A DNA stretch of 64,000 nt from Candidatus Sungiibacteriota bacterium (GCA_016201505.1 JACQCQ010000013.1:80830-144829); one strand, 5' to 3'. Positions 2,069 through 55,692 are shown, counted from the first letter of the stretch. Translations and numbers: made by a program. Notes: a model not told the origin generated them from the letters alone.

Positions 2069-3073
2069 CTACATCTTGCCTACCCTCCGCACGTGCTCGA
2101 CGAGGGTCGAGGTGTAACCGTACTCGTTGTCGTACCAGGAAAAAACTTTCACTAGATCGCCGTCGATCACCTGCGTCAGCGTTAGATCCACAATCGCGCC
2201 GTATGGCTCGCCGATGATGTCGGTGGAAACAACTGGATCCTCTGTAACTTTTAAAACTTTTTCCCATCTTGTGTCGCCCGCCGCTTTTTTAAAAATAGAG
2301 TTTACTTCCTCGACAGTGGTAGGTCGTCCAACCAGCGCTGTTATATCCGAGATTGACCCAGAAATAACGGGAACGCGGAAGGCCATGGCGCCGAATTTTC
2401 CGAGAAGGTCGGGGATGGATTGAATCACGGCTTCCGCCGCCCCGGTGGTTGAAGGCACGATGTTCGCCGCCGCGGCCCGACCGCGGCGCATGTCTTTTGT
2501 ATCCGGCCCGTCAACTAATTTCTGGGTTGCCGTATAGCCGTGCACCGTCGACATGCCGGCTTTTTTAATGCCGAGCGTCTCTTTTAGAATTTGCATCACG
2601 GGTGCCGTGGCATTCGTCGTGCAAGAGGCATTCGCCGAAATCTTTTTAATCGATCCAGCAAATAGAGTGTCGTTGACGCCAACCAGTGCCGTCGTGACTT
2701 CACCGGTTGCGGGGGCGGTGATCACCACCCGGCGCGCGCCAGCACTCAAATGCGCCTCGGCTTTAGCCGAGTCCGTATAGAATCCGGTGGACTCAAGCAC
2801 GACATCAATGCCGTATGACTTCCAGGGCAGTTTTAGCGCCTCTTTTTCGGCCAGAACCTTAACCTCCCTCCCATCAACTACCAGAAATCCTTCTTTTGCT
2901 TTTACTACTTTATCGTAACGGCCGTAGACGCTGTCGTATTTCAATAGATAGGCCAGCGTCTTGGTGTCGGTCAAATCATTAATCGCCACCATATCGAACT
3001 CCGGATCGCCAAAGGTGCGCCTGAAAAAATTACGCCCGATTCTTCCGAAACCATTGATGGCAATTTTTATCAT
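2069..3073 (-). CDS. gap: Glyceraldehyde-3-phosphate dehydrogenase.
   Basis: MIKIAINGFGRIGR Rossmann N-terminus; active-site ASCTTNA motif; full-length GAPDH similarity. Confidence 0.9.
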   Translation of the reverse strand: MIKIAINGFGRIGRNFFRRTFGDPEFDMVAINDLTDTKTLAYLLKYDSVYGRYDKVVKAKEGFLVVDGREVKVLAEKEALKLPWKSYGIDVVLESTGFYTDSAKAEAHLSAGARRVVITAPATGEVTTALVGVNDTLFAGSIKKISANASCTTNATAPVMQILKETLGIKKAGMSTVHGYTATQKLVDGPDTKDMRRGRAAAANIVPSTTGAAEAVIQSIPDLLGKFGAMAFRVPVISGSISDITALVGRPTTVEEVNSIFKKAAGDTRWEKVLKVTEDPVVSTDIIGEPYGAIVDLTLTQVIDGDLVKVFSWYDNEYGYTSTLVEHVRRVGKM

Positions 3074-15686: not shown

Positions 15687-15718
15687 AAAAGTTCGATAGA
15701 CTAGTCTATCGAACTTTT
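15687..15718. promoter_or_regulatory. Operator type 2, copy a: AAAAGTTCGATAGACT|AGTCTATCGAACTTTT, 32-bp perfect palindrome between the TrpR-like gene stop and the rseP start.
   Basis: Perfect inverted repeat sharing the core GTTCGATAGACTAGTCTATCGAAC with copies at 16149, 20417, 29422 and 35243. Confidence 0.6.
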
Positions 15719-16148: not shown

Positions 16149-16180
16149 ATTAGTTCGATAGACTAGTCTATCGAACTAAT
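16149..16180. promoter_or_regulatory. Operator type 2, copy b: ATTAGTTCGATAGACT|AGTCTATCGAACTAAT, 32-bp perfect palindrome 5 nt upstream of the TrpR-like start codon and overlapping the tlyA stop.
   Basis: Perfect palindrome with the same 24-bp core as 15687-15718. Confidence 0.6.
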
Positions 16181-17033: not shown

Positions 17034-17071
17034 CTAGTACCTTTTATCCGATCGGATAAAAGGTACTAGCT
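17034..17071. promoter_or_regulatory. Operator type 1, copy c: ACTAGTACCTTTTATCCGA|TCGGATAAAAGGTACTAGC, in the frr-tlyA intergenic region.
   Basis: Near-perfect 38-bp palindrome with the same core TTTTATCCGATCGGATAAAA as copies at 1382 and 1978. Confidence 0.55.
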
Positions 17072-20416: not shown

Positions 20417-20448
20417 TATAAGTACGATAGACTAGTCTATCGTACTTA
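20417..20448. promoter_or_regulatory. Operator type 2, copy c: ATAAGTACGATAGACT|AGTCTATCGTACTTAT, with a symmetric T-to-A variant in both half-sites. It lies upstream of holB.
   Basis: 32-bp perfect palindrome; the half-site change is mirrored, preserving dyad symmetry. Confidence 0.55.
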
Positions 20449-25075: not shown

Positions 25076-26412
25076 TCTAAACGCACCTCGCATAAGGATC
25101 AGGCTTTCGCCTGCTAGATTTCGATCTCGGGCAATCTCCACGCCGCAGGCAAGGTGCACCTCGCCAAAAGCACGTCTCCGCTGCAGCGGAGCAAGACGAC
25201 CCGAGCTCTGTTATCCCGAACATCGGTACGATTTTTTTTTGCGATGCAGATACCGAGGTAGCGGAGGAAGCAGACGCCCAGTAGAGGATCGGGCGAAGGC
25301 ACTACCTACTAGCTAACCCGATCATACGTGATGTCCACCCCCGCGCTTCTCATCACCTTGTCCAGTGATACTCCGCAAGCGCCACGGGATTTCCTGCATC
25401 GCAAACTGAATTTCTATTTTTCCTTATCTCATCCTGGAGTTTTCGCCGCGCCAAAATTTTTATAAATAAAAACTTAGGCGGGCGTCCGACCTTCTAGGAT
25501 CACTGTTCAATCAGTTTGCTAGTTTTCTAGTTGACTAGTTAACTAGTAGGTCGCTAAGCGACCGGAACTGATGAACTGACAGATTCCTAAAAAGAATATG
25601 TTCCATCGACAGCTTCCGCTACCGATGCCTTGTTCATGTTCTCCCTATGTCGCCATAAGGCATGGACTATATCATCACCCTTTGTTGCAATGTCTTGATT
25701 TTTCTCGGATGCCAACTTCCGATAATCTTCAAGAAGTTTTCTTGAGATTTTTTCGAAATAAACATTCGGAAATAATCTGGATCTATGTGGAAACTTGGAT
25801 TATGGATTTTCCCCGATTGGATTCCAAAACTTATCAGCATTTGTTTAAGTTTCTCCAGTTTGATGCGATCATTCTGCACCAGTTGAATGTAAAACCTTGC
25901 GGATGGACTTCTTGGAATTCCTCCCTCGGCATCAAAGAATCCTCTTAAATACGCTATTTTTTCCTCAGCTGAATTTAACCGCTTAGGATCGAATTTTGTA
26001 TCTAAGAATTTTGCTCTTGTTTCCAATACATACACTTTACGATTTCTGCCTTCGCGATATATCCAGGAGGTATTATCCGTTAGCGCTAGGCAAGATTTTA
26101 GTACTGATAACCAATCAGTACCTAGCTGCGCAAACCGGTGTCTTTGGTTATACCGATTGAAGGTGCCATCGTGAAGCGCACCGAGTAAGTATGCTCGGCA
26201 TTCTGCAACAGAAGGGGCTTGGCGTGTAGTCTCTGAGGCGCCTCCGACGTTACGTCGGAGTTGCCTGCTGATTGTCTGCGCTTTTCGCATTATCACTTCT
26301 AGAACTATTTTAGCTCTATAAGTAGCAAAAAGATACTCAGGTTTTCCAGCATATAGCCAAGTTTTTATGTGAGAATTACTCCTCACAAGTCGCAACGGAC
26401 GCAGTCTGCGCC
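25076..26412 (-). mobile_element. About 1.3-kb intron-like insertion near the 16S 3' end (E. coli position about 1506-1520) encoding a LAGLIDADG homing endonuclease.
   Basis: 16S exon sequence (positions about 1400-1505) occupies 26396-26497 and the terminal about 22 nt occupy 25051-25072. The intervening 1.3 kb has no 16S similarity and carries the LAGLIDADG ORF. Confidence 0.6.
25667..26395 (-). CDS. Double-motif LAGLIDADG homing endonuclease (intron-encoded). The track ORF begins with a TTG; the start is uncertain.
   Basis: Two LAGLIDADG-like motifs: LLGALHDGTF and YLRGFFDAEGGI. Length 242 aa. Confidence 0.8.
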   Translation of the reverse strand: MRLVRSNSHIKTWLYAGKPEYLFATYRAKIVLEVIMRKAQTISRQLRRNVGGASETTRQAPSVAECRAYLLGALHDGTFNRYNQRHRFAQLGTDWLSVLKSCLALTDNTSWIYREGRNRKVYVLETRAKFLDTKFDPKRLNSAEEKIAYLRGFFDAEGGIPRSPSARFYIQLVQNDRIKLEKLKQMLISFGIQSGKIHNPSFHIDPDYFRMFISKKSQENFLKIIGSWHPRKIKTLQQRVMI

Positions 26413-26497
26413 TACGACTTCGTCTTTGTCACCGATCCTACCGTGGGCCACCATAAGTGGACTTCGGGTATTACCAGCTCCCCTGACGTGACGGGCG

Positions 26498-27232
26498 GTA
26501 TTAAGATCACTTCTGTGTCTTACACCACTGGGCGAACGGTTTTCCCGTACCCTAGCGGTTTCTTATATCGCTTTCGCGATATAGATTCGTCCCTTCCCGA
26601 GCACATATTTTTGGAGTCTATTGACGAAATTTATCAATAGGTATATAAATTGTATACGAGGAGGTGAAGGATTATGTTGGGTATCGCGGTTCCACCGATC
26701 CCTGCAAACGCGGGTGTCAGTAGCGATCCGGAAGGACTGCTCGCGCTCCTTCTTCTGATGTTCGTCGTTGTTCCGTCAATCATCGTCATTTTCGGCGGCG
26801 CGATCATGGCGAACGTCGAAGACTGAGATCAGCGGACGGCTTTCACCCCCCACAGCGGCCTCCAGGAGGTCGCTTTCAATTTCTCCAAAAATATGTGCTC
26901 GGTACTATGGATTCTGCTGACTTCTCAATAAGCATCAAGATAAAATTGCTTTTATCCTTTACCTTTCGGACTTAATAAGATCTCCTTCGGTCACCGAATA
27001 TACCATTCTCTCACATCTCGATACTCCGTATATAGCGTAAAATTTGTGCAGATGACTTCTCCATGTACTCGAAGGATCGTCGATCTACGCTACCTATTAG
27101 CGAGTATTCAAGCTATAAGACATATACTTTCGCCCTTCATCCTGAGGATCACTCCTCGAAGGACTGCGATTTCATTTCGCGACTTCTGCAAATCGTGGTG
27201 GGATTTAAACCCACTGGCATACTCGGCTGCAA
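26498..27232 (-). other. About 735-nt insertion in 16S at the conserved 1400 region, between GACGGGCGGT and TGTACAAG.
   Basis: Universal 1392 primer-site sequence is split: ...GACGGGCGGT at 26485-26494 and ...GTACAAAGCTCGAGAACGTATTCACC at 27235-27262. Confidence 0.6.
26674..26826 (+). CDS. Candidate 50-aa hydrophobic peptide with a strong Shine-Dalgarno, encoded inside the 16S insertion (antisense to the rRNA).
   Basis: AGGAGGTG is 5 nt upstream of the ATG. Translation MLGIAVPPIPANAGVSSDPEGLLALLLLMFVVVPSIIVIFGGAIMANVED has one predicted TM helix. Confidence 0.3.
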   Translation: MLGIAVPPIPANAGVSSDPEGLLALLLLMFVVVPSIIVIFGGAIMANVED

Positions 27233-27708
27233 AGCACCCGAGTACAAAGCTCGAGAACGTATTCACCGCGGCATAGCTGATCCGCGATTACTAGCGATTC
27301 CATCTTCAAGGAGTCGAGTTGCAGACTCCTATCTGAACTGGGGCGCACTTTGATGGGATTAGCTCCGCCTTGCGGCTTGGCAACCCATTGTATGCGCCAT
27401 TGTAGCACGTGTGTAGCCCAGGGTATCAGAGGGCCATGCTGACCTCGCGTCATCCCCTCCTTCCTCTCCCGAAAAGGAAGCAGTCTCTCCTGACACATAT
27501 AACAGAAGACAAGGGTTGCGTTCGTTAACCCACTTAAGGGAACAGTTCAAACCACGAACTGACGAGGGCCATGCAGCACCTGTGATTGCCGTCTTGTGAA
27601 CACACCGCGGTTTCTCGCGGTTTTTGCAATCATTTCAAACCCTGGTGAGGTTCCTCGGTTGTCATCGAATTGAACCACATGCTCCACCGCTTGTGCGAGC
27701 TCCCGTCT

Positions 27709-27740
<32 letters not shown>

Positions 27741-27838
27741 TCCCAGGCGGCAGATTTAACGCGTTAGCTGCGCCACTCCGAGGGTCGATACTCGAAATAG
27801 CTAATCTGCATCGTTTAGGGCGTGGACTACTGGGGTAT

Positions 27839-28920
27839 CTACAATTTTGTTGCGACAAAATTGGAATTTCTAAATCCGAATTTCTAATTTCTAAACAAAT
27901 CCGAAATCTCAAATTTCCAAATTGCGGACGAGACATTTCTGCTCGTCTCTCCGTATCGCTACGGAGATCGGACTGTATCATGACGGAAAGTATTACTGGC
28001 GCGGGTTTCGCTTTCGCTCACCCGCGCCGGGACTTCCGCCCTCGGCGTGCAGTCTCTGAGGGTTACGAAAGAGAGATCGGCGCTGTTTCTACATGCCGAT
28101 GGCCGAAACCGGGCCCGTCGAGGCTATCTCCGTAGCTTTCCTTGACGATGCGCTCGACGCGTACCACATTACCCATATCTTGAGCGATGGCGCGAGCTAC
28201 ATTGTCACCTTGAGCTTCGAACTCTACGACTGCCCAATATTTCATAGCTTCTCCTTTTCGTCCTTCCCTGCTGGTTGTCCGTTGACCGATCCGCGTTTAG
28301 CGGATACAGGTCGCACCGGATGCTTTTTTACCACTACTTTACATCGAACTTGCTGACTTCCTTCCGCATTCCTTCAAGGACCCTGCGAATCTCCGGCGAA
28401 TTGCCGTACTTCGCGAGGTACTTGTCGATCAGCTCGAGAAACCCGTTCTGCATGGCCTCGCGGGCCATTTGAGTGAACAAGCTCATTGTTTTTTTCCTTT
28501 CTGTGGTAGCACCGGATACACCGGATGTTCCAGCATATAGCTCCGCCGTCGCCTCACGGCTATGGCGGATCCCAACTTCACCATCATATTTTTCAATGGT
28601 GCGTCGGGACAAGTTTTCCAGGCAGTAGAAATTCGACTCGCTTCACAGCTGGCCGCAGAGAGGCCGGTCGAATTTCTACTGCCTGGTTTTTCCTTTTGAC
28701 GCGTTACTTCGCGTCCTAAGGGGACCATGCTCACGGTACCCCTACCGCCTCACTCTCGTTCGCTGTATCAACAGCGCCCTCAAGCGAGTCACATGTATGC
28801 ACAGAGAAATTTTTTCGAAACTCAAGGGAGGGATCCCGTCGTCGGAACGACAAATCCCTATGGGGAGAGTTGTAACATGCTCCTCCCTTGGTGATGAAAA
28901 AATTTCTCTGTGCAAAACAT
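27839..28920 (-). other. About 1.1-kb insertion in 16S after the 785-805 site. It contains small ORFs (28063..28245 and 28334..28612, minus strand) and a hairpin repeat element.
   Basis: 16S blocks on either side are contiguous in normal 16S (GGACTACTGGGGTATCTA at 27820-27838 and CCCATTCGCTCCCCACGCTTTCG at about 28925). The intervening sequence has no rRNA similarity. Confidence 0.55.
28613..28686. repeat. Hairpin element with 21-bp perfect terminal inverted repeats CCAGGCAGTAGAAATTCGAC...GTCGAATTTCTACTGCCTGG (family member 1).
   Basis: Perfect inverted repeat with a 28-nt interior. The terminal repeats match the element at 29205-29332. Confidence 0.6.
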
Positions 28921-29204
28921 GCGCGAGCGCTTTCGATCCCATTCGCTCCCCACGCTTTCGTCTGTGAACGTCAGGACAAGGCCAGCAACATGCCTTCGCC
29001 TTTGGTATTCCCTATGATATCAACGGATTTCACCCCTACACCATAAGTTCTAGTTGCCTCTCCTTGCCTCTAGTCGTGCCGTTTCGAATGCGGCCTACGA
29101 GTTAAGCCCGTAGATTTAACACCCGACTAACACGACCGTCTGGAGACCCTTTACGCCCAATAAATCCGGATAACGCTTGAAGCCTTCGTATTACCGCGGC
29201 TGCT

Positions 29205-29332
29205 GGCCAGGTAGTAGAAGTTCGACTGCGCGCGAGCGCAAATTATTTTCGAACATTTAATTTTCAGAGCCATGACAGATAGTGCTCCCAACTACAGAAA
29301 TCTTCATTTCATAGTCGAACTTTCACTACCTG
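29205..29332. repeat. 128-bp hairpin intervening element inserted in the 16S 530-loop region. Terminal repeats CCAGGTAGTAGAAGTTCGACTG / CAGTCGAACTTTCACTACCTGG. Family member 2 (IVS/MITE-like).
   Basis: The insertion splits the universally conserved GCTGCTGGCAC (519 site) into GCTGCTGGC | element | CTGGCAC, with a CTGGC direct repeat. The 22-bp terminal inverted repeats are near-identical to those of the 28613 element. Confidence 0.65.
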
Positions 29333-29344
29333 GCTGGCACGAAA

Positions 29345-29995
29345 TTCTACCGCCAATTTGGACTATATCATCACCCCGATGTTCATCGGGGGTCCCGCGT
29401 GTAGTCTCTGAGGGCTCTCTGCTATAAGTTCGATAGACTAGTCTATCGAACTTATAGAAACAGGTTGCCTGCTGATTGTTTCGTTGCGCGTCTTTGCAGT
29501 TTGCAAAACATTTCCGCGGACACAACGAAGTGTTCCAGTCCCGCAAGCCTCCCCACCGCAATACACTGATGTATTGTAGTGGCATGACTCACAGGATTCC
29601 CGAATCCATCTTTTCTTACGGCCAATAGGGCCGCGGGATTGCGATTTGTAACTACTCCGCCTTCGCTAAAAGCTTCGGCGGACAAGTCGTTACACTCGCA
29701 GACAAATCGGGAACATATAGCGAGATTTTCTTATGACGTATTACTACGCCAACTTCGCACCAAGTTTTTCTAACTTCACGAAGTTTGCAGCTTCTTATTC
29801 ATCTGGTACGGTCAGTCGTGCCTCGCTCTAGCGAACCACTCTCAATTTTAAATTTCCAATTTCTAATTTTCAATGAATGTCCTAATGTCTCAATTTCCAA
29901 AGGTTTGGGGTATTGAATCATTAAGAATTGACTGAAAATTGCAAAATTGATCATTGCAAATTGTGTGCCTCACAAAAGTGAGACACGACTTCTTC
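29345..29995 (-). other. About 540 extra nt in the 16S region between E. coli positions about 400 and 515. It contains the operator type 2 palindrome and sequence blocks shared with the LAGLIDADG intron.
   Basis: Blocks GCGTGTAGTCTCTGAGGG (29396-29413) and GTTGCCTGCTGATTGT (29464-29479) also occur at 26222-26238 and 26261-26276 within the LAGLIDADG ORF region. Conserved 16S resumes near 29995 (CTTTACAGACCGAAGTCCTTCTTCCTGCACGCGGCG). Confidence 0.5.
29422..29457. promoter_or_regulatory. Operator type 2, copy d: CTATAAGTTCGATAGACT|AGTCTATCGAACTTATAG, 36-bp perfect palindrome, located inside the 16S insertion.
   Basis: Identical 36/36 to the copy at 35243-35278. Confidence 0.55.
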
Positions 29996-30237
29996 CCAGA
30001 TAAAAGCAGTTTACAGACCGAAGTCCTTCTTCCTGCACGCGGCGTCGCTCGATCAGGCTTTCGCCCATTGTCGAATATTCTCGACTGCAGCCACCCGTAG
30101 GTGTATGAACCGTATCTCAGTTTCATCGTTGGGGATCACGCTCTCACGCCCCCTACCCGTCATAGCCAAGGTGCGCCATTACCACACCTTCTAGCTGATA
30201 GGACCAAGGCTCCTCCCCGAGCGCTCTTGCGAGCTTT

Positions 30238-30296
30238 ACCCCGCCTAAATTTTTGAGCTTTTTCATACTTTCAAAAAGCTCAAAAATTTAGGCGGG
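30238..30296. repeat. 25-bp perfect-stem hairpin expansion in the 16S V1-V2 region.
   Basis: CCCCGCCTAAATTTTTGAGCTTTTT-catactttc-AAAAAGCTCAAAAATTTAGGCGGGG. Confidence 0.5.
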
Positions 30297-30624
30297 GACC
30301 ATTGAGTATTAGCCAATCTTTCGGCTGGTTATTCTCATCTCGGGGGTAGATTCCAAGGTATTACTGAACTCGTTCGCCGCTAACTGGCAAATTGCGCGTA
30401 GCTAATGGAAAATAGTATTGCTACTATAAGCCATCCGCCAATTGCTATAAGCCAATTCGCACGACTTGCATGCCCTATCCACGCCGCCAGCGTTCATCCT
30501 GGACCAGGATCAAATCCTCTAATAGATCAGTTAGTTTTTCAGTTTACTAGTTGCCTAGTTCACATATTGCTAACTGCCGAGAACAAGAGGAAGAAAGAAA
30601 CGAATTTTTAGAAAACTCGCGAAA

Positions 30625-31830: not shown

Positions 31831-31858
31831 CACTCCAATACTTTAAAGTATTGGAGTG
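31831..31858. promoter_or_regulatory. Operator type 3, solo copy: CACTCCAATACTTT|AAAGTATTGGAGTG, 28-bp perfect palindrome.
   Basis: Identical to the palindrome at 36548-36575 flanking the second TrpR-like gene. Confidence 0.55.
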
Positions 31859-35242: not shown

Positions 35243-35278
35243 CTATAAGTTCGATAGACTAGTCTATCGAACTTATAG
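35243..35278. promoter_or_regulatory. Operator type 2, copy e (36-bp perfect palindrome) upstream of the membrane GH gene.
   Basis: CTATAAGTTCGATAGACTAGTCTATCGAACTTATAG, identical to 29422-29457. Confidence 0.55.
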
Positions 35279-36547: not shown

Positions 36548-36575
36548 CACTCCAATACTTTAAAGTATTGGAGTG
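36548..36575. promoter_or_regulatory. Operator type 3, copy a: CACTCCAATACTTTAAAGTATTGGAGTG. It abuts the stop of the TrpR-like gene and lies 10 nt upstream of the GH1 start.
   Basis: 28-bp perfect palindrome. Confidence 0.6.
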
Positions 36576-47872: not shown

Positions 47873-48059
47873 GGCATCCTCCTATGGCTTCGGATACCTT
47901 TATCATAACGGGTCTTTTATAAAAACCAAATAAAAAAACCTAAACGCGGTACAATCAGAAAGGCTCAAGCGACGGCGGCTTTGACTGAACATCCTACCTG
48001 TTTCGATAAAATAAAAAGCTCTGTAAGAGCTACCCGAGAAAGCCCCACTCTCCAGACAT

Positions 48060-48145
48060 CGAAAGTGATTTCTTATCGTCGGGCTGGCGGTGGGATCATT
48101 GCCGTTTGAAGGGTATTCAAAATAAAGGTGCGCTAAGAAATCACT
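48060..48145 (-). ncRNA. Conserved about 85-nt element immediately downstream of the mreB stop (copy 1 of 2; the other at 55048-55125 downstream of rpsI).
   Basis: Core TCGGGCTGGCGGTGGGATCATT..CG...GAAGGG.AT..AAA.TAAAGG.GCG conserved. It is enclosed by a different but self-complementary outer stem in each copy (GTGATTTCTTA/TAAGAAATCAC here, GGAAATTTTTCTTC/GAAGAAAAATTTCC in copy 2). Confidence 0.35.
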
Positions 48146-48156
48146 TCCAATGTGCG

Positions 48157-49167
48157 CTACCTCTTCGACATAATCGAGCGCTTGTAGATATCAAGATGCT
48201 CAAGCGCAATCCCCGTACCTTTGGCAACACAGAGCAACGCATCTTCGGCCAAGTGCGCCGGAATGCCGATTTCGCGCTCGATTAACACGTCTAAATTGCG
48301 AAGCAGCGAACCCCCGCCGGTCATCACAATACCGCGATCCATAATATCGGCTGATAATTCGGGAGGCGTCTCATGAAGGACCGTCTTGATGGCCCGCAAA
48401 ATCTCTGCCAGAGCCTCTTCTAAGGCTTGGGTGATGGCCGAAGATGAAATTTTAATCGTCCGCGGGAGGCCCGAGAGCAAATCGCGGCCTTTTACTTCCA
48501 TTGCCTCATCTTCAGTGATCTCAACCGCGCTGCCAATGGCAATTTTAACTTCCTCGGCGGTGCGATCCCCAATCGCTAAATTGAAATTTCGTTTAATATA
48601 TTCGGCGATGGCCTGATCTAATTTATTGCCCGCAACTTTAACTGATGTCGAAGCCACAATCCCGCCCAGCGAAATCACCGCGACATCAGTCGTCCCGCCG
48701 CCAATATCGATGACCATGTGGCCAGCGGCTTCATTAATGGGGATACCGGCTCCAATAGCGGCCAGCACCGGTTCTTTTACGACATAGGCGGCTTTGGCAC
48801 CCGCATGCACGGTAGCTTCAATCACGGCGCGCCGTTCAGTTGACGTGACACCGGCAGGAACTGAGACCATGACTTCGGGCCGTATAAAGCGAAACCAATT
48901 GCCGGCATTTGAAATAAAATATTTGAGCATGGCTTCGGTGACGCGATAGTCAGCAATGACGCCGTCCCGCAAAGGACGATAGGCCATGATGCTCTCTGGG
49001 GTTCGGCCGATCATGTCCCGTGCTGCATTGCCAACTGCGAGTATCCGGTTATCATCCACAGAAACTGCAACCACCGATGGCTCATTAATAATGACACCAC
49101 GCCCAGGCACAAAAACGAGCGTATTGGCGGTGCCTAAATCTATGCCGATTTTTTGCGAGAAAAACAT
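48157..49167 (-). CDS. mreB: Rod-shape-determining actin homologue MreB.
   Basis: IGIDLGTANTLV, DIGGGTTDVAVIS, and full-length MreB similarity. Confidence 0.9.
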   Translation of the reverse strand: MFFSQKIGIDLGTANTLVFVPGRGVIINEPSVVAVSVDDNRILAVGNAARDMIGRTPESIMAYRPLRDGVIADYRVTEAMLKYFISNAGNWFRFIRPEVMVSVPAGVTSTERRAVIEATVHAGAKAAYVVKEPVLAAIGAGIPINEAAGHMVIDIGGGTTDVAVISLGGIVASTSVKVAGNKLDQAIAEYIKRNFNLAIGDRTAEEVKIAIGSAVEITEDEAMEVKGRDLLSGLPRTIKISSSAITQALEEALAEILRAIKTVLHETPPELSADIMDRGIVMTGGGSLLRNLDVLIEREIGIPAHLAEDALLCVAKGTGIALEHLDIYKRSIMSKR

Positions 49168-49259
49168 GAGCGTTCCCATTTTACGCGCATTTAAAAGGCC
49201 GAGGCAAGGGGCTATCGAAACGCGCGCGCCTTGCGATATTAGACTGCAGTTTTAGACGC

Positions 49260-50735
49260 TTGGCAATTGTACGGCTTTTAGCTAGAGTTCTCGATATGAG
49301 GAAAACAACCCGTCGAGCCGTTTTTTATTTGTTTAGCGGGCTTTTTTTGATCACAACACCTTTGATCGTATTCTATGCCTTCGGTTATTCATTTGATTTC
49401 CAAAACGGTGTCGTGGTGCCTACCGGTGGCGTATTTGTGAAAGCCAACGTTGGCGCGATTCGCGTTTTGGCGAATGGAAAGCTCATGAAAGAAACAAATT
49501 TTTTAACTAAGGGCGCATTGATATCCGGCCTCTCGTCGGGCCATGTCGAAGTAGAGGTAGCGAAAGACGGATACATTCCTTGGAGAAAACCAGTCGGTAT
49601 CGAAGAGCAAGTTATTCAAGAATACCGCTCGATTCTTCTTGTACCCGAGGCCTTGCCGGCTGATCTCGTATACGGTACTACGAGCCAGGCGTCTTCAAGA
49701 CAGACTGTTTCTCTCGAGCTTTTGCCCGATCCAACGGGGAATTTCATTTTTTGGGCCGCAAAAAAAAGAAACTTAACCCGGCTACGCGTGATCAGTCGCG
49801 ATGGGGTTGAAACGCGGGCTCAAATCTCCCTGGAACCAGGCGAATCGTATCTTTCTGCCTCTTGGAATCCCAGCGGTAACGTAGTACTCGTTTCAACCAA
49901 CCGGCGTGGGCATACGATCTGGCGCGCTTTATCGGCTAATTCAAAATCCGTCCTACCGGTGTTTGATGAAAAAACTATTTTGCGTACGAGCACCTCAACC
50001 AGATCGGAAACCATCTCTGAAGCCTCGCTTAGCTTGATCACCTGGTCGCCGGCTGATATTGATGAATTTCTTGTGCTGGCAAACGGCGCGATTTACCGCT
50101 GGAATTTAAGCTCCGGGCTAGTCAAAAAAATTATTTCGAGTGCCAGATCGTTTGCCCGATTTAATGGAAATATCCTCTATTCAACTCAAAGCGGATTTAT
50201 TGCCACTGCCGATCTATCCGGCGAACATATAGAATCGCTGGATCATCCGGGTCTTTACGTTGCAAAAAGTCCGCTCCGCTATTTTCAAAATAAAGACGGC
50301 GTTTTGGCTTTGATCGACTCTGCCGGGGGACTTTATCTAGAAAACCCGAGCACAAGAAAATTCTCCCCCCTGACAACCGAGATCCATGAAGCTGAATTTT
50401 CCTCCAACACCGCCGAACTTGGCTACACCCAATCCGGCACATTCTCAACCATTGCTCTCGCTGATGAGACAACCCAGCCGTTCCGCAGAATGTACACCAA
50501 GTCGGCCATATTCACGACTGACGAAATTCTCCATTTTATATGGCTCGGCAATCCAGCAGCTCATATTGTCTATACGACCGCGCGGGGCGTATTTCTGGCG
50601 GAAACCGATCCGCGTCCGGGCGCAAATATCGTGCCGCTCCGCCGCGGAGACTACCAGATTGTCGAATCTCCCAACGACCCAAACAGTTTTTATTTCTCGG
50701 ACGGAGAAATTATTGAACGACTGACGATACGATAA
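49260..50735 (+). CDS. Membrane-anchored hypothetical protein with a PEGA-like domain and a beta-propeller-like C-terminal region.
   Basis: N-terminal TM helix. SGHVEVEVAKDGYIPWRKPV PEGA-like motif. Repetitive beta-rich C-terminus. Confidence 0.5.
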   Translation: MAIVRLLARVLDMRKTTRRAVFYLFSGLFLITTPLIVFYAFGYSFDFQNGVVVPTGGVFVKANVGAIRVLANGKLMKETNFLTKGALISGLSSGHVEVEVAKDGYIPWRKPVGIEEQVIQEYRSILLVPEALPADLVYGTTSQASSRQTVSLELLPDPTGNFIFWAAKKRNLTRLRVISRDGVETRAQISLEPGESYLSASWNPSGNVVLVSTNRRGHTIWRALSANSKSVLPVFDEKTILRTSTSTRSETISEASLSLITWSPADIDEFLVLANGAIYRWNLSSGLVKKIISSARSFARFNGNILYSTQSGFIATADLSGEHIESLDHPGLYVAKSPLRYFQNKDGVLALIDSAGGLYLENPSTRKFSPLTTEIHEAEFSSNTAELGYTQSGTFSTIALADETTQPFRRMYTKSAIFTTDEILHFIWLGNPAAHIVYTTARGVFLAETDPRPGANIVPLRRGDYQIVESPNDPNSFYFSDGEIIERLTIR

Positions 50736-50763
50736 GGTCATCCGATAACATGAAAAGTCCTAA

Positions 50764-50808
50764 AAAACATTCTCAAGTTCTTAAGAACTTGAGAATGTTT
50801 TTTAGGTT
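50764..50808. terminator. Bidirectional rho-independent terminator: 30-bp perfect palindrome flanked by A6 and T6.
   Basis: AAAAAACATTCTCAAGTTCTTAAGAACTTGAGAATGTTTTTT between convergent genes. Confidence 0.7.
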
Positions 50809-50822
50809 TCGTCTCCAGATGA

Positions 50823-51776
50823 CTACGGAAAGAATCTGCGATAGGGAGCCGAAATGATAGAACCGAATGTGGCGAGAAAGACCACCGCGACAACGAGCCA
50901 GCCGATAAAAGGAATAATTTTAAGAATTTGATAGAGCAGGACACCGATGACGATGGTTTGCCAGGAGATGTGACTCTCGCCTTTTTTATACCACAAAGAG
51001 ACATACCGGCCGAGTAAAATCGCCGCCACCGCCGATGAGACCACGATAGTTACGATATAAAGCAGAAGCCCGATCACGCCAATTGGTATGCCGATAATGG
51101 TGACAAAGGCAACGACAACCAGAATTGGAATACCAATCAAGCCAAGAAGTCCGCGAAGAATTTCTTTGCCAAAATTCGTCTCGGCCGCATGCACCACCTG
51201 CGATACCCAGGGGCCAAAGAAGTACCAAACAAGAAAGGCTAAAACAATGCCCATCAACGTTTTCATCACCCACCAAAAGCCAATAACGCCGAGGAGTCCC
51301 CCCGCGTGATTCTCGCCCGGTTTACGCGTATATTGTTTTACTGTTCCATGAACGACGCCCTGATTTTGAATATCACCGCCCGCCAGCAATAAATCCCCGC
51401 CGATGACAGCCCCCGGCAAAATTTTTACTCTCCCACCGGCCGCCAAAACATCGCCTTTCACTTGGCCCGCAATCGTCACCTCACCGCCCGCCACCCGCAG
51501 GCTATCGCCGACATTGCCCGAAATATTAATCGTCCCGCCGGCCAGCATGGCGCTTTTAGCGACATTCCCATTTACATTTACATTCCCGCCGGCCGCCGTC
51601 AGATCGCCGTTTATGTTGCCTTCAATGTTCAATGTCCCGCCGGCAATATAGAGATTGCTGTTGACTGATGCGCCTTTAGGCAGTAAATACTGATCGCCCG
51701 AATAAAATTCAGCGGCGAGCGAGACAAGCGGCACCAAAAGACCGAGGGCCGAAATGAGAATTAAGAGTTTTTTCAT
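50823..51776 (-). CDS. Bactofilin-like beta-helix repeat domain fused to a C-terminal multi-TM domain, adjacent to mreB.
   Basis: Signal/TM N-terminus. Repeats AGGTLNIEGNINGDLTAAGGNVNVNGNVAKSAMLAGGTINISGNVGDSLRVAGGEVTIAGQVKGDVLAAGGRVKI match the bactofilin (DUF583) pattern. Then about 5 TM helices. Confidence 0.55.
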   Translation of the reverse strand: MKKLLILISALGLLVPLVSLAAEFYSGDQYLLPKGASVNSNLYIAGGTLNIEGNINGDLTAAGGNVNVNGNVAKSAMLAGGTINISGNVGDSLRVAGGEVTIAGQVKGDVLAAGGRVKILPGAVIGGDLLLAGGDIQNQGVVHGTVKQYTRKPGENHAGGLLGVIGFWWVMKTLMGIVLAFLVWYFFGPWVSQVVHAAETNFGKEILRGLLGLIGIPILVVVAFVTIIGIPIGVIGLLLYIVTIVVSSAVAAILLGRYVSLWYKKGESHISWQTIVIGVLLYQILKIIPFIGWLVVAVVFLATFGSIISAPYRRFFP

Positions 51777-51850
51777 ATCAATTTCAACATACCATTTCTT
51801 TACCTTTCGTCCCACTTTGGGTGATAAATAATCCTGGTTTGATTTGCCGA

Positions 51851-52699
51851 TCAAAAACTACGCGCGGGCTGCTGGATTTGGGATTCTGCCCTAAACGCCC
51901 GATGAGCGCTTACCGAAGAATTTATTTGTTCGGGTCTCGCCTGCTTGATAATGACAGCCTGTCCTGTCGGGAGCCGAATGACTGGTTCATGATACCTGCG
52001 GCTGAACTCTTCAACGGCTTTATAGGCCCCGGGCCAGGACATAAATCCATAATCATCACAGACCATTACTCCGCCCGCTACGAGGCGAGGGTAGAAGTAT
52101 GCGAAAGCCGCCAGGGTGGGTTGGTAGAGATCCAAATCGACATGCACAAACAGATACTGCCTCTCGGGGACGTGCGCAAAGCTATCCGGTATCCAACCTT
52201 TATGGTACTCAATAAAATCGAAATCCTTCAGACTTTCTCGGACATCCTCTAGCGAATAGGCCATGCGGCCGCCGTCACTGCCGATTTTACTTGCGGGTAA
52301 TGATTTTTCGATGTCAAACTCGCTCGTAACATCTTCTTTCGTTCTAGCAGAGAGTCCTTGGAAGGAGTCGAACGCGTATATCTTATGCCTCCCGCCTTTT
52401 AGCACCGAACATAATTGAAATAGGGTAGTACCTCTGGCAATTCCCGCCTCCACAAAGTTCTGTTCCGGGTAGTTATGAAACCTCTGGCTGACATACGATG
52501 CGAGTTGAATCAAAGTATAGTTACGCACTTTGCTGGGGAAAAAATCTCCCTTATGAGTGGCTTTCAACGAATCTTGATATATCTCGTGGAACTTCTGGTC
52601 GTTTAACCAAAGATACCGCGGCTGATTGTTGAGACTCTGGGCGAGACGCATGACTTCATAGCCAAAATAGTTCGCAATTCGCCTGATTATTTTTCTCAT
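51851..52699 (-). CDS. TylF/MycF-family class I SAM-dependent O-methyltransferase.
   Basis: VEAGIARGTTL, IYAFDSFQGL, HVDLDLYQPT, GGVMVCDDYG: the macrocin-O-methyltransferase family pattern. Confidence 0.7.
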   Translation of the reverse strand: MRKIIRRIANYFGYEVMRLAQSLNNQPRYLWLNDQKFHEIYQDSLKATHKGDFFPSKVRNYTLIQLASYVSQRFHNYPEQNFVEAGIARGTTLFQLCSVLKGGRHKIYAFDSFQGLSARTKEDVTSEFDIEKSLPASKIGSDGGRMAYSLEDVRESLKDFDFIEYHKGWIPDSFAHVPERQYLFVHVDLDLYQPTLAAFAYFYPRLVAGGVMVCDDYGFMSWPGAYKAVEEFSRRYHEPVIRLPTGQAVIIKQARPEQINSSVSAHRAFRAESQIQQPARSF

Positions 52700-52726
52700 A
52701 ATGTTTTAAGACCATTATGAGCTGGC

Positions 52727-54067
52727 TCAGTTATTATCAAAATTTGACGCGGGGAAGTTCTCTCCATGATCCATCTCATCTTGAGACTGGGCCGAAGATC
52801 CCCCGCTCGATGTATTAAGCTGCTCGGCGGGAGACGTCAGTGGAACGAGACCCGTTGCCTGAACGCAGGCTATGATTTTCCCCTTCATGTCGGCTGTTGG
52901 TTGGAACGCGCCCTTGGCGTATTGATTGACAGCATCCGCGCCAAAAAGCTTAGAGATGCAGGCGAGTGGATTAAAATCAATTTTTTGCGGCATCATGCCA
53001 TGAGAACTCTCAGACCCTCCATACATATTTTTATTCTTTTCGGCCGATACTTTTTGAAAACAATCGCCGACTTTATGCCCCAGCTCGGAGTCTTTCATAA
53101 CCTGACCTGTTTCTACTTCACCCAGTTCATCCGGGGAGAGCGAATCCTTAAGGCAAGCCATTACATCGGACGGCAATTGAAACTTGGAAGAACCGCCTCG
53201 GCCCATGGGGCTCTCATGCATCATGTTGTGTTGTTCTTTTGAAAAATTCGCGCAGGTCGCCTTGTTTTCCGGCTGACTGCAAAATTGATGACATGACTCT
53301 GGCGAGTCGCATCCCCCCGGCCCCTTCATGTCTTCACTCCTAAAGTTCTTCTCCTCTTCATCCGTGATGAGTCCGGCTTTTTTGGCAAACTGGATGCATT
53401 CATCTTGATGCGCGGGGTCCTGGCAGTATGGCATGCACTCCTCTTTTGACTTGCAGCCGCCTGGAGTTTCGCCCGTCTTTATCAATTCAATAAACTTCTT
53501 GGCGCGCTGAATCTCGCTTGCATCCATTAAGCCATTCTGTTCGGCAAATGAGAGACACGCGTCCGCATGTGCCGGATCGTTGCAATACGCGCGGCAGGCG
53601 GTCTCCCCCCGGCAGCCGCCCGGCCCAATTCTTTGCGCGTCGAGTTTTGATTTGAACTTTTCAATTTTCTGAATTTCGTCCTGGCCGATTAGATTGTGCG
53701 CTTTCGCAAACGCCAAACACTCATCGCGATGTCCGGCATCAGAACAATATGCCCCGCAGGCTGATTTTGAAGTGCACCCGCCAGGTCCGCCATTTTTTAT
53801 CGCTTCCTCGATCTTCGACTGATTATCGGTTCTTCTGGGTGCGAGTCCATGAGACTCGGCATAACTTTGGCAGGCTTCGGCATTAGCCGCGACGTCGCAA
53901 AACGCTTTGCATTCGGCCATCGAGCCGCAATTGCCCAATTCGGCAATCGGAAACTTTATATCAAACGGATTAGCCGATAAGGCAAAATGCGAAAACAAAA
54001 CAGCTCCGATAATGATGAGGCATGTAAGCAGCGCCGGATGGCGGAAAGAAGTCATATTACTTTCCAA
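52727..54067 (-). CDS. Secreted Cys-rich tandem-repeat protein: five about 45-aa repeats, each GPGGC-x5-C-x3-C-x6-C with His/Asp-rich spacing.
   Basis: Signal peptide. The five repeats are:
- [34 protein letters not shown]
- [33 protein letters not shown]
- [32 protein letters not shown]
- [27 protein letters not shown]
- plus an N-terminal copy. Confidence 0.6.
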
Positions 54068-54317
54068 AGGGATTCTTATATGAATCTTGGAATGGATTCA
54101 CTGTTTTTTCATAGGGATTGGTCGCCGGAACTTTGTTGCCGATTGAGGAGGAGGCGCGAATGTTTATTCTGATGTTCTCGTTGGGAGTTGCTCTCGCAGC
54201 CGGCCCTTGATTAAAGATGCTCTCCTTCCAGTCCGGCCCCAAAGTTTTATATATGAAAAAAGCGGCAGCCAAAATGACGATAACGGTGATTAGGGCAATC
54301 ATGTATTTCATAGACAC
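54057..54317 (-). CDS. Small membrane-anchored protein (86 aa), probably co-transcribed with the Cys-rich protein.
   Basis: N-terminal TM helix [18 protein letters not shown]. 11-nt overlap with the downstream gene start. Confidence 0.4.
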
Positions 54318-54438
54318 TCTCTATTATAGATCCTGCAAAAAAGCCGTAAATACGCCTTTATAAACAATCACTTTTTAGACGTCTCAAATTTTTATTCTAA
54401 CTTTCTTAAGAACTTGAGAATGTTATTTTTACGCTGGT

Positions 54439-54897
54439 CTAAATTTTCTGCCAGCCGATGACGGGATGAAGTTCCCACCAGTTATGAAAGGTATCAAACC
54501 GGACAATGCCCCAGATTTTGATGCGATCGCCGGCTGTGGGTAGCGGCAAGTTTTTAATTTCAGGAATAAATTCAGTAACAAGCAACGACTCGTCCGGTGC
54601 CTTGATTACGACATGAAAGTCTCCGTCGGGTTGCGGGGCGATGATATTGACGACGCCCTCGACTGTAACTTTTGTCTTCTTGCTGCCGTGCGTAATGAAG
54701 GTGGCAAGATCAGTATCGTAATAGAGCAGGTCATCATCCTCCGTTTCACCTTGCTGGACAGAATAAGAAAGGGTTCGTTCTACAATTTTGGGAATTAAAG
54801 CCCGTGGATTTAATGTTTGGGATCGAATATAAAAACCAAACCCGATGCCCGCGCCCAAGACAACCAGAAACTTTACCGCCCAAAGCCATCGCGTCAT
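54439..54897 (-). CDS. Membrane-anchored hypothetical protein (152 aa).
   Basis: N-terminal TM helix, then a soluble beta-rich domain. Flanked by degenerate copies of the 50771 terminator palindrome. Confidence 0.5.
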   Translation of the reverse strand: MTRWLWAVKFLVVLGAGIGFGFYIRSQTLNPRALIPKIVERTLSYSVQQGETEDDDLLYYDTDLATFITHGSKKTKVTVEGVVNIIAPQPDGDFHVVIKAPDESLLVTEFIPEIKNLPLPTAGDRIKIWGIVRFDTFHNWWELHPVIGWQKI

Positions 54898-54989
54898 AAA
54901 CTTAGTTTAACCGTTCTCTGTTGACTATAGAAGGCTGACTGGGGAAACAGAATCAGTTCCGACAACATTCTCAAGTTCTTACTCTACCC

Positions 54990-55020
54990 CAGAAAAAACC
55001 GCCCGCGGGCGGTTTTTTTC
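54990..55020. terminator. Bidirectional terminator downstream of rpsI.
   Basis: AAAAAACCGCCCGCGGGCGGTTTTTTT. Confidence 0.65.
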
Positions 55021-55047
55021 TGCCTCATGCAAAGCGGGGAAATTTTT

Positions 55048-55125
55048 CTTCATCGGGCTGGCGGTGGGATCATTTACGCCCGAAGGGCTATCGAAATAAA
55101 GGCGCGAAGAAAAATTTCCTGCGAG
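55048..55125 (-). ncRNA. Conserved 3'-flank element, copy 2 of 2 (see 48060-48145), immediately downstream of the rpsI stop.
   Basis: Same conserved core as 48060-48145 with a covarying outer stem. Confidence 0.35.
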
Positions 55126-55692
55126 CTATCGTTTTTGCCACTGCGGGGCGCGACGGGCTTTTTTAAGTCCAAACTTTTTGCGCTCTACTTCTCGTGCATC
55201 GCGGGTTAGGAAGCCTGCCCGTTTTAGTCTTTTTCTAAATTCTGGATTGAATACTGTGAGTGCTCTCGAAATGCCAAGCCGAATGGCTTCGGCTTGGGAG
55301 TGAATGCCGCCACCATTAACTTTGGCCGAAACGCGAAAGCGGCCTTCAGAGCGCATCTTTTTCATCGGGTCATCAACCAGCCGCTGGAGTTCCATGGTGG
55401 GAAAATATTCCTTATAGGGCCGCTGGTTTACGACCGTCACTAAATCGCCCTTGGTATATAAACGCACGCGGGCGACCGCCGTTTTTCTGCGGCCGACAGC
55501 TTCAAAATAGCGATCGGTTTTGGGAATAACAAATTGAAAATCGGCCTCCGATTCTTTTTCGGGCTCCCCTACCATAGCCATTTTTGGACTATGGATGGCG
55601 ACTTCCTGCTTCTTGACTTTGGCGCGAGTCGTCGGCGCTTTCTCCTTTTTTGGTTTTTCCTCTCCGCCTTTGGCGGATTTCTTCGTCGGCAT
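55126..55692 (-). CDS. rpsI: 30S ribosomal protein S9 with an N-terminal Lys-rich extension.
   Basis: GRRKTAVARV, GGG, RLGISRAL, AGFLTRDAREVERKKFGLKKARRAPQWQKR: the S9 C-terminal signature. Confidence 0.9.
   Translation of the reverse strand: MPTKKSAKGGEEKPKKEKAPTTRAKVKKQEVAIHSPKMAMVGEPEKESEADFQFVIPKTDRYFEAVGRRKTAVARVRLYTKGDLVTVVNQRPYKEYFPTMELQRLVDDPMKKMRSEGRFRVSAKVNGGGIHSQAEAIRLGISRALTVFNPEFRKRLKRAGFLTRDAREVERKKFGLKKARRAPQWQKR

Follow-up and report, generated by a model that had tools for sequence, protein, structure and literature searches.

Hairpins after mreB and rpsI in a Sungiibacteriota genome as probable members of a dispersed palindromic repeat family of Parcubacteria

Rickettsia palindromic elements (RPEs) are found between genes as well as in-frame within unrelated essential genes, and no transposase is known for them (PMC10969869). 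ERIC and QMITE2 repeats are located in 3´ untranslated regions (UTRs), and the effects of ERIC-type repeats on mRNA depend on orientation (PMC10969869). In function, the element described here is most like the RPEs and also the ERIC-type repeats that resemble MITEs (miniature transposable elements with inverted repeats). It occurs twice in a 64,000-nucleotide stretch of DNA from a Candidatus Sungiibacteriota bacterium (GCA_016201505.1 JACQCQ010000013.1:80830-144829; hereafter the window, meaning the whole stretch), as hairpins just after the mreB and rpsI genes on the minus strand. We conclude that these two hairpins are not a gene-specific 3´ UTR regulator. Our preferred reading, to which we give a probability of roughly 0.6, is that they belong to a selfish palindromic repeat family, dispersed and multi-copy, of the Parcubacteria within the Candidate Phyla Radiation (CPR). 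The family is probably mobile. It is also previously undescribed: a scan of Rfam assigned no family to either window copy at E-values up to 10, and nothing relevant came out of literature searches on its sequence, on repeats or structured RNAs of these phyla, and on 6S RNA of the CPR.

The likeness to RPEs is functional, lies in another phylum and carries no claim of homology. Both are palindromic repeats of ~100-150 bp in a reduced-genome bacterium, with no transposase or mobilising mechanism known for either, and both are dispersed between genes and in-frame in unrelated essential genes, to whose products they add a conserved peptide (here in argS and a miaB-like gene, ..GLAVGS..). Unlike in RPEs, an asymmetric, non-palindromic core is conserved here while the stem varies with compensation, most copies lie just past stop codons, and there is a long form with a ~150-nt structured domain. 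With the ERIC/IRU repeats (QMITE2, Correia, BOX), the family shares imperfect palindromes of ~80-130 bp, transcribed intergenic or 3´ UTR positions, tens of copies per genome, internal insertions that yield short and long variants, and rare intragenic copies (PMC10969869).

Scanning one genome per species for the exact core pattern gave 48 matches, 13 of them real and all 13 in Patescibacteria (Terrybacteria, Harrisonbacteria and other metagenome-assembled genomes, MAGs); the remaining matches are chance occurrences in GC-rich coding DNA. A metagenome scan contributed 108 more stretches, ~60 of which are real. After removal of duplicates there were ~57 distinct elements, all in Patescibacteria/Parcubacteria-type DNA, at roughly one copy per 30-100 kb. 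Nearly all complete copies in an AT-rich context carried a closing stem, the exceptions being a 5´-truncated solo copy (L068), a stem-less copy (L094) and copies cut by contig ends. The one match in a scan of viral contigs, on the same contig as L119, has neither closing stem nor 5´ motif and looks like a chance match.

Read on the C-rich strand, which we call sense, the units (70-260 nt) share a common plan: a stem of 13-35 bp, CGCCUYYAUUU, a variable middle, (N)GAUCCCACCGCCAGCCCGA, and the other stem arm. The core is asymmetric and non-palindromic, and its first CG can pair with the CG of CCCGA, leaving the A bulged. Core length follows the middle, from 43-47 nt where it is absent, through 52-63 nt with a small, often UUCG-closed hairpin and 124-143 nt with larger inserts, to 181-228 nt in the long form, where the middle is a conserved ~150-nt domain. 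Within a lineage the inner 11-14 bp of the stem are held in common, for example AUUUUUCUUCA or UUUUCGGAUAU, and the outer part is locus-specific. Most copies were found by an exact-match pattern, so the invariance of the core is overstated and partly an artefact of the search; in three further copies, which came from the covariance model and not from the pattern, the core has 1, 4 and 5 changes.

At the DNA level the family behaves as a selfish element would, spreading or turning over, as shown by its absence from orthologous sites in close relatives, subtypes that do not follow loci, both orientations, nesting and copies in coding sequence. In two relatives whose S9 proteins are 81-88% identical and whose gene order is similar (L165 and L166), the full model with filters off found no copy after rpsI or mreB, and none was present there in L167, L003, L005 or L007 either (six related genomes in all). 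Local order in the close relatives is rpsI, then a few kb later mreB, followed by L32/NusB/RNase III. The more distant L003, L005 and L007 have other hairpin-enclosed elements or plain palindromes after rpsI or mreB. Neither are subtypes bound to a locus: the rpsI copy is of the GCCCUUCGGGC type in the window and of the GCUCGCC..GGCGAGC type in L097, and the L107 contig holds both inner-hairpin types 4.8 kb apart.

Copies also lie in antisense within presumptive operons, identified by eye from translations, between a co-directional transaldolase-like gene and a SIS-domain gene, probably gmhA (L022, L153), between co-directional murB and hpf (L084), and between co-directional genes for RNR and a cobO-like protein (L116). 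Several others are in divergent promoter regions, and long forms are often found past a terminator or opposed to the neighbouring genes. In L131, a complete reverse copy (2440-2513, minus strand; 62.7 bits) lies in the loop of another copy (2398-2568, plus strand). Intact copies with the full consensus and a perfect stem are present in-frame and antisense in argS (L057), where the catalytic and DALR domains flank the insert (PDB 3fnr, E=9e-59), and in the gene for a MiaB-like radical-SAM enzyme (L146, L169). In the host proteins the insert amounts to 30-38 residues. The encoded peptides are DFSSVGLAVGSFSKNKIEAREEKSG and DFSFIGLAVGSLSKNKIKAGKEKSG; the core is translated as GLAVGS, and the two host proteins share DFS(S/F)(V/I)GLAVGS(F/L)SKNKI.A..EKSG. 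A search with a concatenated query found no other proteins with the element-encoded peptide. The MiaB-like homologues P0125, P0126, P0130, P0132 and P0143, 76-79% identical, are without the insert, and in L170, where the site is empty (…NSYSSPPVKFP…), there is no palindrome at it, indicating that the hairpin arrived as a unit with its own arms. Perfect palindromes are abundant in these genomes and some stems overlap stop codons, which had favoured insertion into the loop of a pre-existing terminator palindrome; as a general rule, this model was rejected on account of the empty miaB site.

Because the elements are absent in relatives, have subtypes not bound to a locus, and occur antisense, nested and in-frame within genes, they are not a dedicated 3´ UTR element. 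The first-pass annotation had proposed 3´ UTR structures that could stabilise or process the transcript, and had named copies inside coding sequence as evidence to the contrary. Its location holds in the window, and ~24 of the ~57 homologues start between -11 and +52 nt from a same-strand open reading frame (ORF) stop codon; the dedicated purpose is not supported. Copies inside coding sequence do exist, in argS and the miaB-like gene, and constant mRNA-sense placement after a stop codon, the mark of a cis-acting 3´ UTR class, is contradicted by the antisense, nested and coding copies.

After the rpsI stop, the related Sungbacteria L005 (10558-10690), L007 (10625-10760) and L165 (5207-5345) carry different ~130-nt elements with their own covarying stems. 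The L005 and L007 elements have the core ..ACCUCCUCGCUCGUCCCGAUUGCGAUCGGGACACCAUGG.CGCUCGUCGGUCGAGCG in common and no Rfam match at E-values up to 1, and CUCGCU motifs abound in the L165 element. Modules enclosed by hairpins thus seem to favour the 3´ end of rpsI as a hot spot. At the site of the MiaB-like insert, the homologues P0123, P0124, P0128, P0131 and P0140 from other genomes (alignment A4, columns 197-250) have at least two other unrelated inserts, ..AFIYKYINYPTANP.. and ..TGNAFFNSRCGR..RDKELKNAFPV; this putative surface site of the protein repeatedly takes foreign sequence.

The two window copies and their immediate neighbours are as follows.

48056-48153, minus strand: copy 1 of the repeat, 23-bp closing stem with 1 mismatch and 52-nt core; 67.9 bits
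48056-48078 and 48131-48153, minus strand: arms of copy 1, enclosing the core at 48079-48130
48079-48100, minus strand: conserved 22-nt core of copy 1, sense AAUGAUCCCACCGCCAGCCCGA, mostly unpaired by prediction
48120-48132, minus strand: 5´ core motif of copy 1, CGCACCUUUAUUU, which varies on CGCCUYYAUUU, the family consensus
48104-48119, minus strand: inner hairpin P2 of copy 1, UUUGAAUACCCUUCAAA, small and variable
55038-55119, minus strand: copy 2 of the repeat, 15-bp closing stem and 52-nt core; 76.5 bits
55038-55052 and 55105-55119, minus strand: arms of copy 2, enclosing the core at 55053-55104
55053-55074, minus strand: conserved 22-nt core of copy 2, the same sequence as in copy 1
55094-55104, minus strand: 5´ core motif of copy 2, CGCCUUUAUUU
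55078-55088, minus strand: inner hairpin P2 of copy 2, GCCC-UUCG-GGC, a subtype also in L084, L100, L116 and L080
48157-49179, minus strand: mreB, upstream of copy 1; PF06723, E=1e-138
55126-55692, minus strand: rpsI (ribosomal protein S9), upstream of copy 2; PF00380
48008-48031, minus strand: intrinsic-terminator-like hairpin (48017-48031) plus U-run, downstream of copy 1
54993-55019, no strand assigned: hairpin resembling a bidirectional terminator (A-run, CCGCCCGCGGGCGG, T-run), downstream of copy 2

What the first-pass annotation had described at these two sites was borne out. Two related elements do follow mreB and rpsI, with limits slightly wider than the 48060-48145 and 55048-55125 originally given, and they share a core, the 22-mer TCGGGCTGGCGGTGGGATCATT, which occurs exactly twice in the window against 0.01 expected by chance. 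Their closing stems differ and are each self-complementary (GGAAGUGAUUUCUUAG../..UAAGAAAUCACUUUC in copy 1, GGAAAUUUUUCUUCG/UGAAGAAAAAUUUCC in copy 2), and both copies lie between a stop codon and a downstream terminator on the minus strand. The stems start 3 nt (mreB) and 6 nt (rpsI) after the stop codon. They are followed by CCGCUUUGC and CUGGAGAG, with no U-run, and separate terminator hairpins stand 20-40 nt further on. Both copies are within the transcribed stretch from stop codon to terminator, in mRNA sense, and would thus fold as 3´ UTR hairpins. Sense-strand folding gave z-scores of -5.6 and -3.2. With a covariance model built from 40 homologues, both window copies among them, and filters off, the next match in the window scored 19.7 bits, compared with 76.5 and 67.9 for the two copies. 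The gene for L13 is just upstream of that for S9, and the S9 of the window matches a protein from a Sungbacteria MAG at NCBI with 100% identity.

A mini-ORF in copy 2 (AUG AUC CCA CCG CCA GCC CGA UGA, MIPPPAR) was considered and rejected, since other copies keep neither its start nor its stop and it is the nucleotide sequence that is conserved. Between copy 1 and the terminator that follows it, the spacer (48029-48046, minus strand) holds GGGGCUUUCUCGGGUAGC, which recurs as GGGG(A/C)UUUCU(C/U)AAGGUAGC between element and terminator at unrelated loci (L136, L139, L159). Either the repeat may extend beyond the hairpin itself, or the flank motif may be a target motif.

The difference between the two closing stems extends to the family as systematic covariation. 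Across 40 distinct short forms, 92% of cells pair at the 14 inner stem pairs plus CG:CG, compared with 56.5% after shuffling and at most 58% when the arms were slid by 1-3 columns. Both-sided changes are found in 14 of the 16 pairs, and the covariation score is 0.816 (0.166 when shuffled); these values are to be read with the caveat that elements were selected partly by requiring a stem. A 5-bp A:U tract (A5:U5) stands at a fixed distance, ~5 bp, from the core, with U on the 5´ arm in ~58-78% of the sequences at its five positions and flipped to A in 8-18%. An RNA helix under selection should accept G·U far more readily than A·C. Mismatches in these stems are equally often G·U (29) and A·C (29), which fits the neutral decay of initially perfect inverted repeats and not the wobble tolerance of RNA.

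The long form, ~210 nt in size and represented by eight sequences, consists of P1, a conserved bubble, P2, P3 and a three-way junction, with compensatory change in 30 of its 68 pairs. Its inner stems have 19 G·U against 8 A·C, one conserved G·U included, and several inner hairpins of the family are C(UUCG)G. This G·U excess and the C(UUCG)G hairpins point to the C-rich strand as the folded one. In the long form at L085, an extra perfect hairpin, CCCCCACAUAAAUACUUAUGUGGGGG, lies within the 5´ core motif of the bubble and the CCAU beside it is duplicated, which again suggests that insertions are tolerated in the loop.

Under the selfish-repeat reading, propagation would require the C-rich strand to pass through a folded, single-stranded state, as RNA or as DNA, and the conserved loop would probably be read by some enzyme. 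Only lineages with a foldable hairpin and an intact core would propagate, so that covariation would build up between copies without selection on each copy. Active lineages would keep a perfect, freely varying stem and a near-invariant core, and single insertions would decay neutrally. In the window, copies would have landed just past stop codons in mRNA sense, so that they would be co-transcribed and form long 3´ UTR hairpins upstream of the terminators. Judging by the effects on mRNA described for ERIC, Correia and REP elements (PMC10969869), they may affect the decay or processing of mreB and rpsI mRNA as a by-product. Stabilisation or processing of the transcript is plausible as such a side effect and unlikely as the reason for conservation.

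Several observations weigh against a selfish repeat. Among the flanking genes examined, neither a transposase or reverse transcriptase gene nor any other partner gene turned up beside a copy. Classical MITEs keep conserved terminal inverted repeats, make target-site duplications and have a related autonomous insertion sequence with a transposase, no such parent being known here; the stem ends vary between copies, and no target-site duplication consistent across copies could be defined, although a duplication of 2 bp could be concealed in the flanks of one lineage (..GCTC, 19-bp stem ... stem, T(T)CGCTT(A)GGG). The single-stranded core is very highly conserved across Sungbacteria, Terrybacteria and Harrisonbacteria, partly as an effect of the exact-match search, and the C(UUCG)G loops and covarying long-form domain are typical of functional RNAs. 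The orientation bias of ~2:1 toward mRNA sense could reflect a role at the RNA level, as could the fact that stems often begin 1-11 nt past a stop codon. Finally, the relatives compared at orthologous loci are 81-88% identical in S9 or more distant.

The alternative that survives best, which we nonetheless regard as unlikely, is a cis-acting 3´ UTR RNA module whose long stem would halt 3´ exonucleases or be cleaved by RNase III, with copies in other contexts being accidents or relics. The sense bias and tight spacing past stop codons fit such a module, as do the position of copies upstream of separate terminators, the UUCG loops of the inner hairpin, and covariation in both stem and long form. 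The loop, being C-rich, G-poor and predicted to be unpaired, would be a putative binding site for a KH-type protein or Rho. A module of this kind is harder to reconcile with intact, perfect-stem copies antisense in coding genes and within operons, with close relatives that lack the element at the same loci, with long forms past terminators or opposed to their neighbours, and with a stem in which G·U shows no excess over A·C. Nor do the upstream genes have anything in common: they are unrelated housekeeping genes, for L13, S9, MreB, RuvA, an RNase J-like protein, YqeY, HPF, MgsA, SecY, KhpA and Map by Pfam, and for EF-G by eye.

It is also conceivable, if rather doubtful, that the long form is a new class of structured non-coding RNA of Parcubacteria and the active master of an RNA-mediated hairpin mobile element (retro- or ribozyme-like). 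The short 3´ UTR, antisense and coding copies would then be its internally deleted progeny, and sense placement behind expressed genes would keep copies transcribed and able to propagate. One MAG contains two divergent long-form paralogues (L012 and L033), and by eye several long forms have -10-box-like hexamers 0-6 nt upstream. The long form is like 6S RNA in its ~200 nt, long closing stem, large asymmetric central bubble with a further helix, and occurrence as two paralogues. Unlike 6S RNA, it has a distal three-way junction in place of a single rod, its bubble recurs in dozens of minimal hairpins, coding copies included, and it has no Rfam 6S match. At nine loci with short and long forms, Rfam 15 (twister, hammerhead, pistol, hatchet, 6S, raiA and others) gave no match at the gathering score, the long form had none at E-values up to 10, and ARAGORN reported no tRNA- or transfer-messenger RNA-like feature at any element.

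A trans-acting role, in which 3´ UTR-derived transcripts or the long form alone would be sibling small RNAs with the C-rich loop as a seed for a G-rich target such as a ribosome-binding site, is very unlikely. The ~19 nt conserved with no internal pairing partner and the combination of a multi-copy family with variable stems are what such RNAs would show, and there are the hexamers upstream of several long forms, but -10-like hexamers are common by chance in AT-rich spacers and coding and antisense copies exist. Moreover, a duplex-energy search with the 22-nt core on both strands of the 64-kb window returned only the element's own antisense, the next-best hits being ordinary GC-rich stretches.

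We attach scant probability to a small self-cleaving ribozyme or ligand-binding aptamer formed by P1, the conserved junction and the optional distal domain. The conservation pattern, in which P1 varies and covaries, the junction nucleotides are invariant and the distal hairpin can be replaced, would suit such an RNA, but short stretches matched no Rfam family even at E-values up to 10, the C-rich conserved strands have no partner for tertiary pairing, many copies lack any inner helix, and the genomic contexts are incoherent, with copies in coding sequence and in antisense.

REP/BIME repeats, mobilised by RAYT transposases, are likewise extragenic hairpin repeats after genes, and single-stranded DNA is the presumed substrate of REPs, which are also believed to make the upstream mRNA more stable; they measure 20-40 nt with a conserved stem and a GTAG/CGTC tag, whereas the present elements span 70-260 nt and position counts of their flanks show no tag. 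That the hairpins serve as a DNA site for recombination or structure, like integron attC hairpins, REPs or terminators, and not as a mobile unit is hardly credible: a hairpin of variable sequence directly after stop codons does recall attC, and the complementarity of the stem is symmetric between strands, but conservation is in the loop and not at the stem base, which is variable and has no R''/R' boxes (RYYYAAC/GTTRRRY), neither size nor tag is that of a REP, the flanking genes are ribosomal and other core housekeeping genes and not cassettes, and the U-run of an intrinsic terminator, with which a few homologues do end, is missing directly after the window stems, whose terminators are separate and downstream.

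CPR bacteria have tiny, streamlined genomes that are thought to be poor in repetitive DNA. If Sungbacteria, Terrybacteria and Harrisonbacteria have in common a hairpin repeat that can lodge within essential genes such as argS and miaB, selfish palindromic DNA would shape CPR genomes and proteins, as RPEs do in Rickettsia, and the family could be used as a marker when typing strains or verifying assemblies. It also carries a warning for RNA-motif discovery, in that strong stem covariation beside genes can stem from a mobile hairpin and not from a regulatory RNA. An invariant asymmetric loop, a free stem and an optional structured domain point to a mobilising mechanism that would read a folded single strand.

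Other repeats and features were noted in the window and its relatives. In L165 (3827-4183), a gene for a bAvd/23S rRNA-intervening-sequence protein lies between rplQ and rplM; bAvd is a type of accessory protein of diversity-generating retroelements. The 16S rRNA gene of the window is in pieces (25643-30525, minus strand), with partial small-subunit rRNA matches in Rfam at 27198-27923 and 28823-30525, a group I intron at 25643-26423 and a piece of a group II intron (D1-D4) at 26884-26960. The 16S sequence departs from the conserved ..GAATACGTTCTCGAGCTTTGTAC context at ~27243, and the canonical GGATCACCTCCTT 16S 3´ end, which the core of the hairpin element might mimic, was not found in the window.

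A perfect, loop-less palindrome of 30 bp, (T/A)AAGTTCGATAGACTAGTCTATCGAACTT(A/T), is present in five copies in the window (15688-15717, 16150-16179, 20419-20448, 29425-29454 and 35246-35275), one of them inside the reported 16S region, with none expected by chance; it is a repeat family separate from the hairpin element. Two further families of perfect palindromes are CTAGTAC.TTTTATCCGATCGGATAAAA.GTACTAG, in 2-3 copies (1383-1418, 17034-17069 and 1978-2015), and CACTCCAATACTTTAAAGTATTGGAGTG, in two (31831-31858 and 36548-36575). The typical bidirectional terminator of this genome stands between convergent genes at 50759-50806, as a perfect, AU-rich hairpin of 20 bp with runs of A and of U, which attracts spurious microRNA matches in Rfam.

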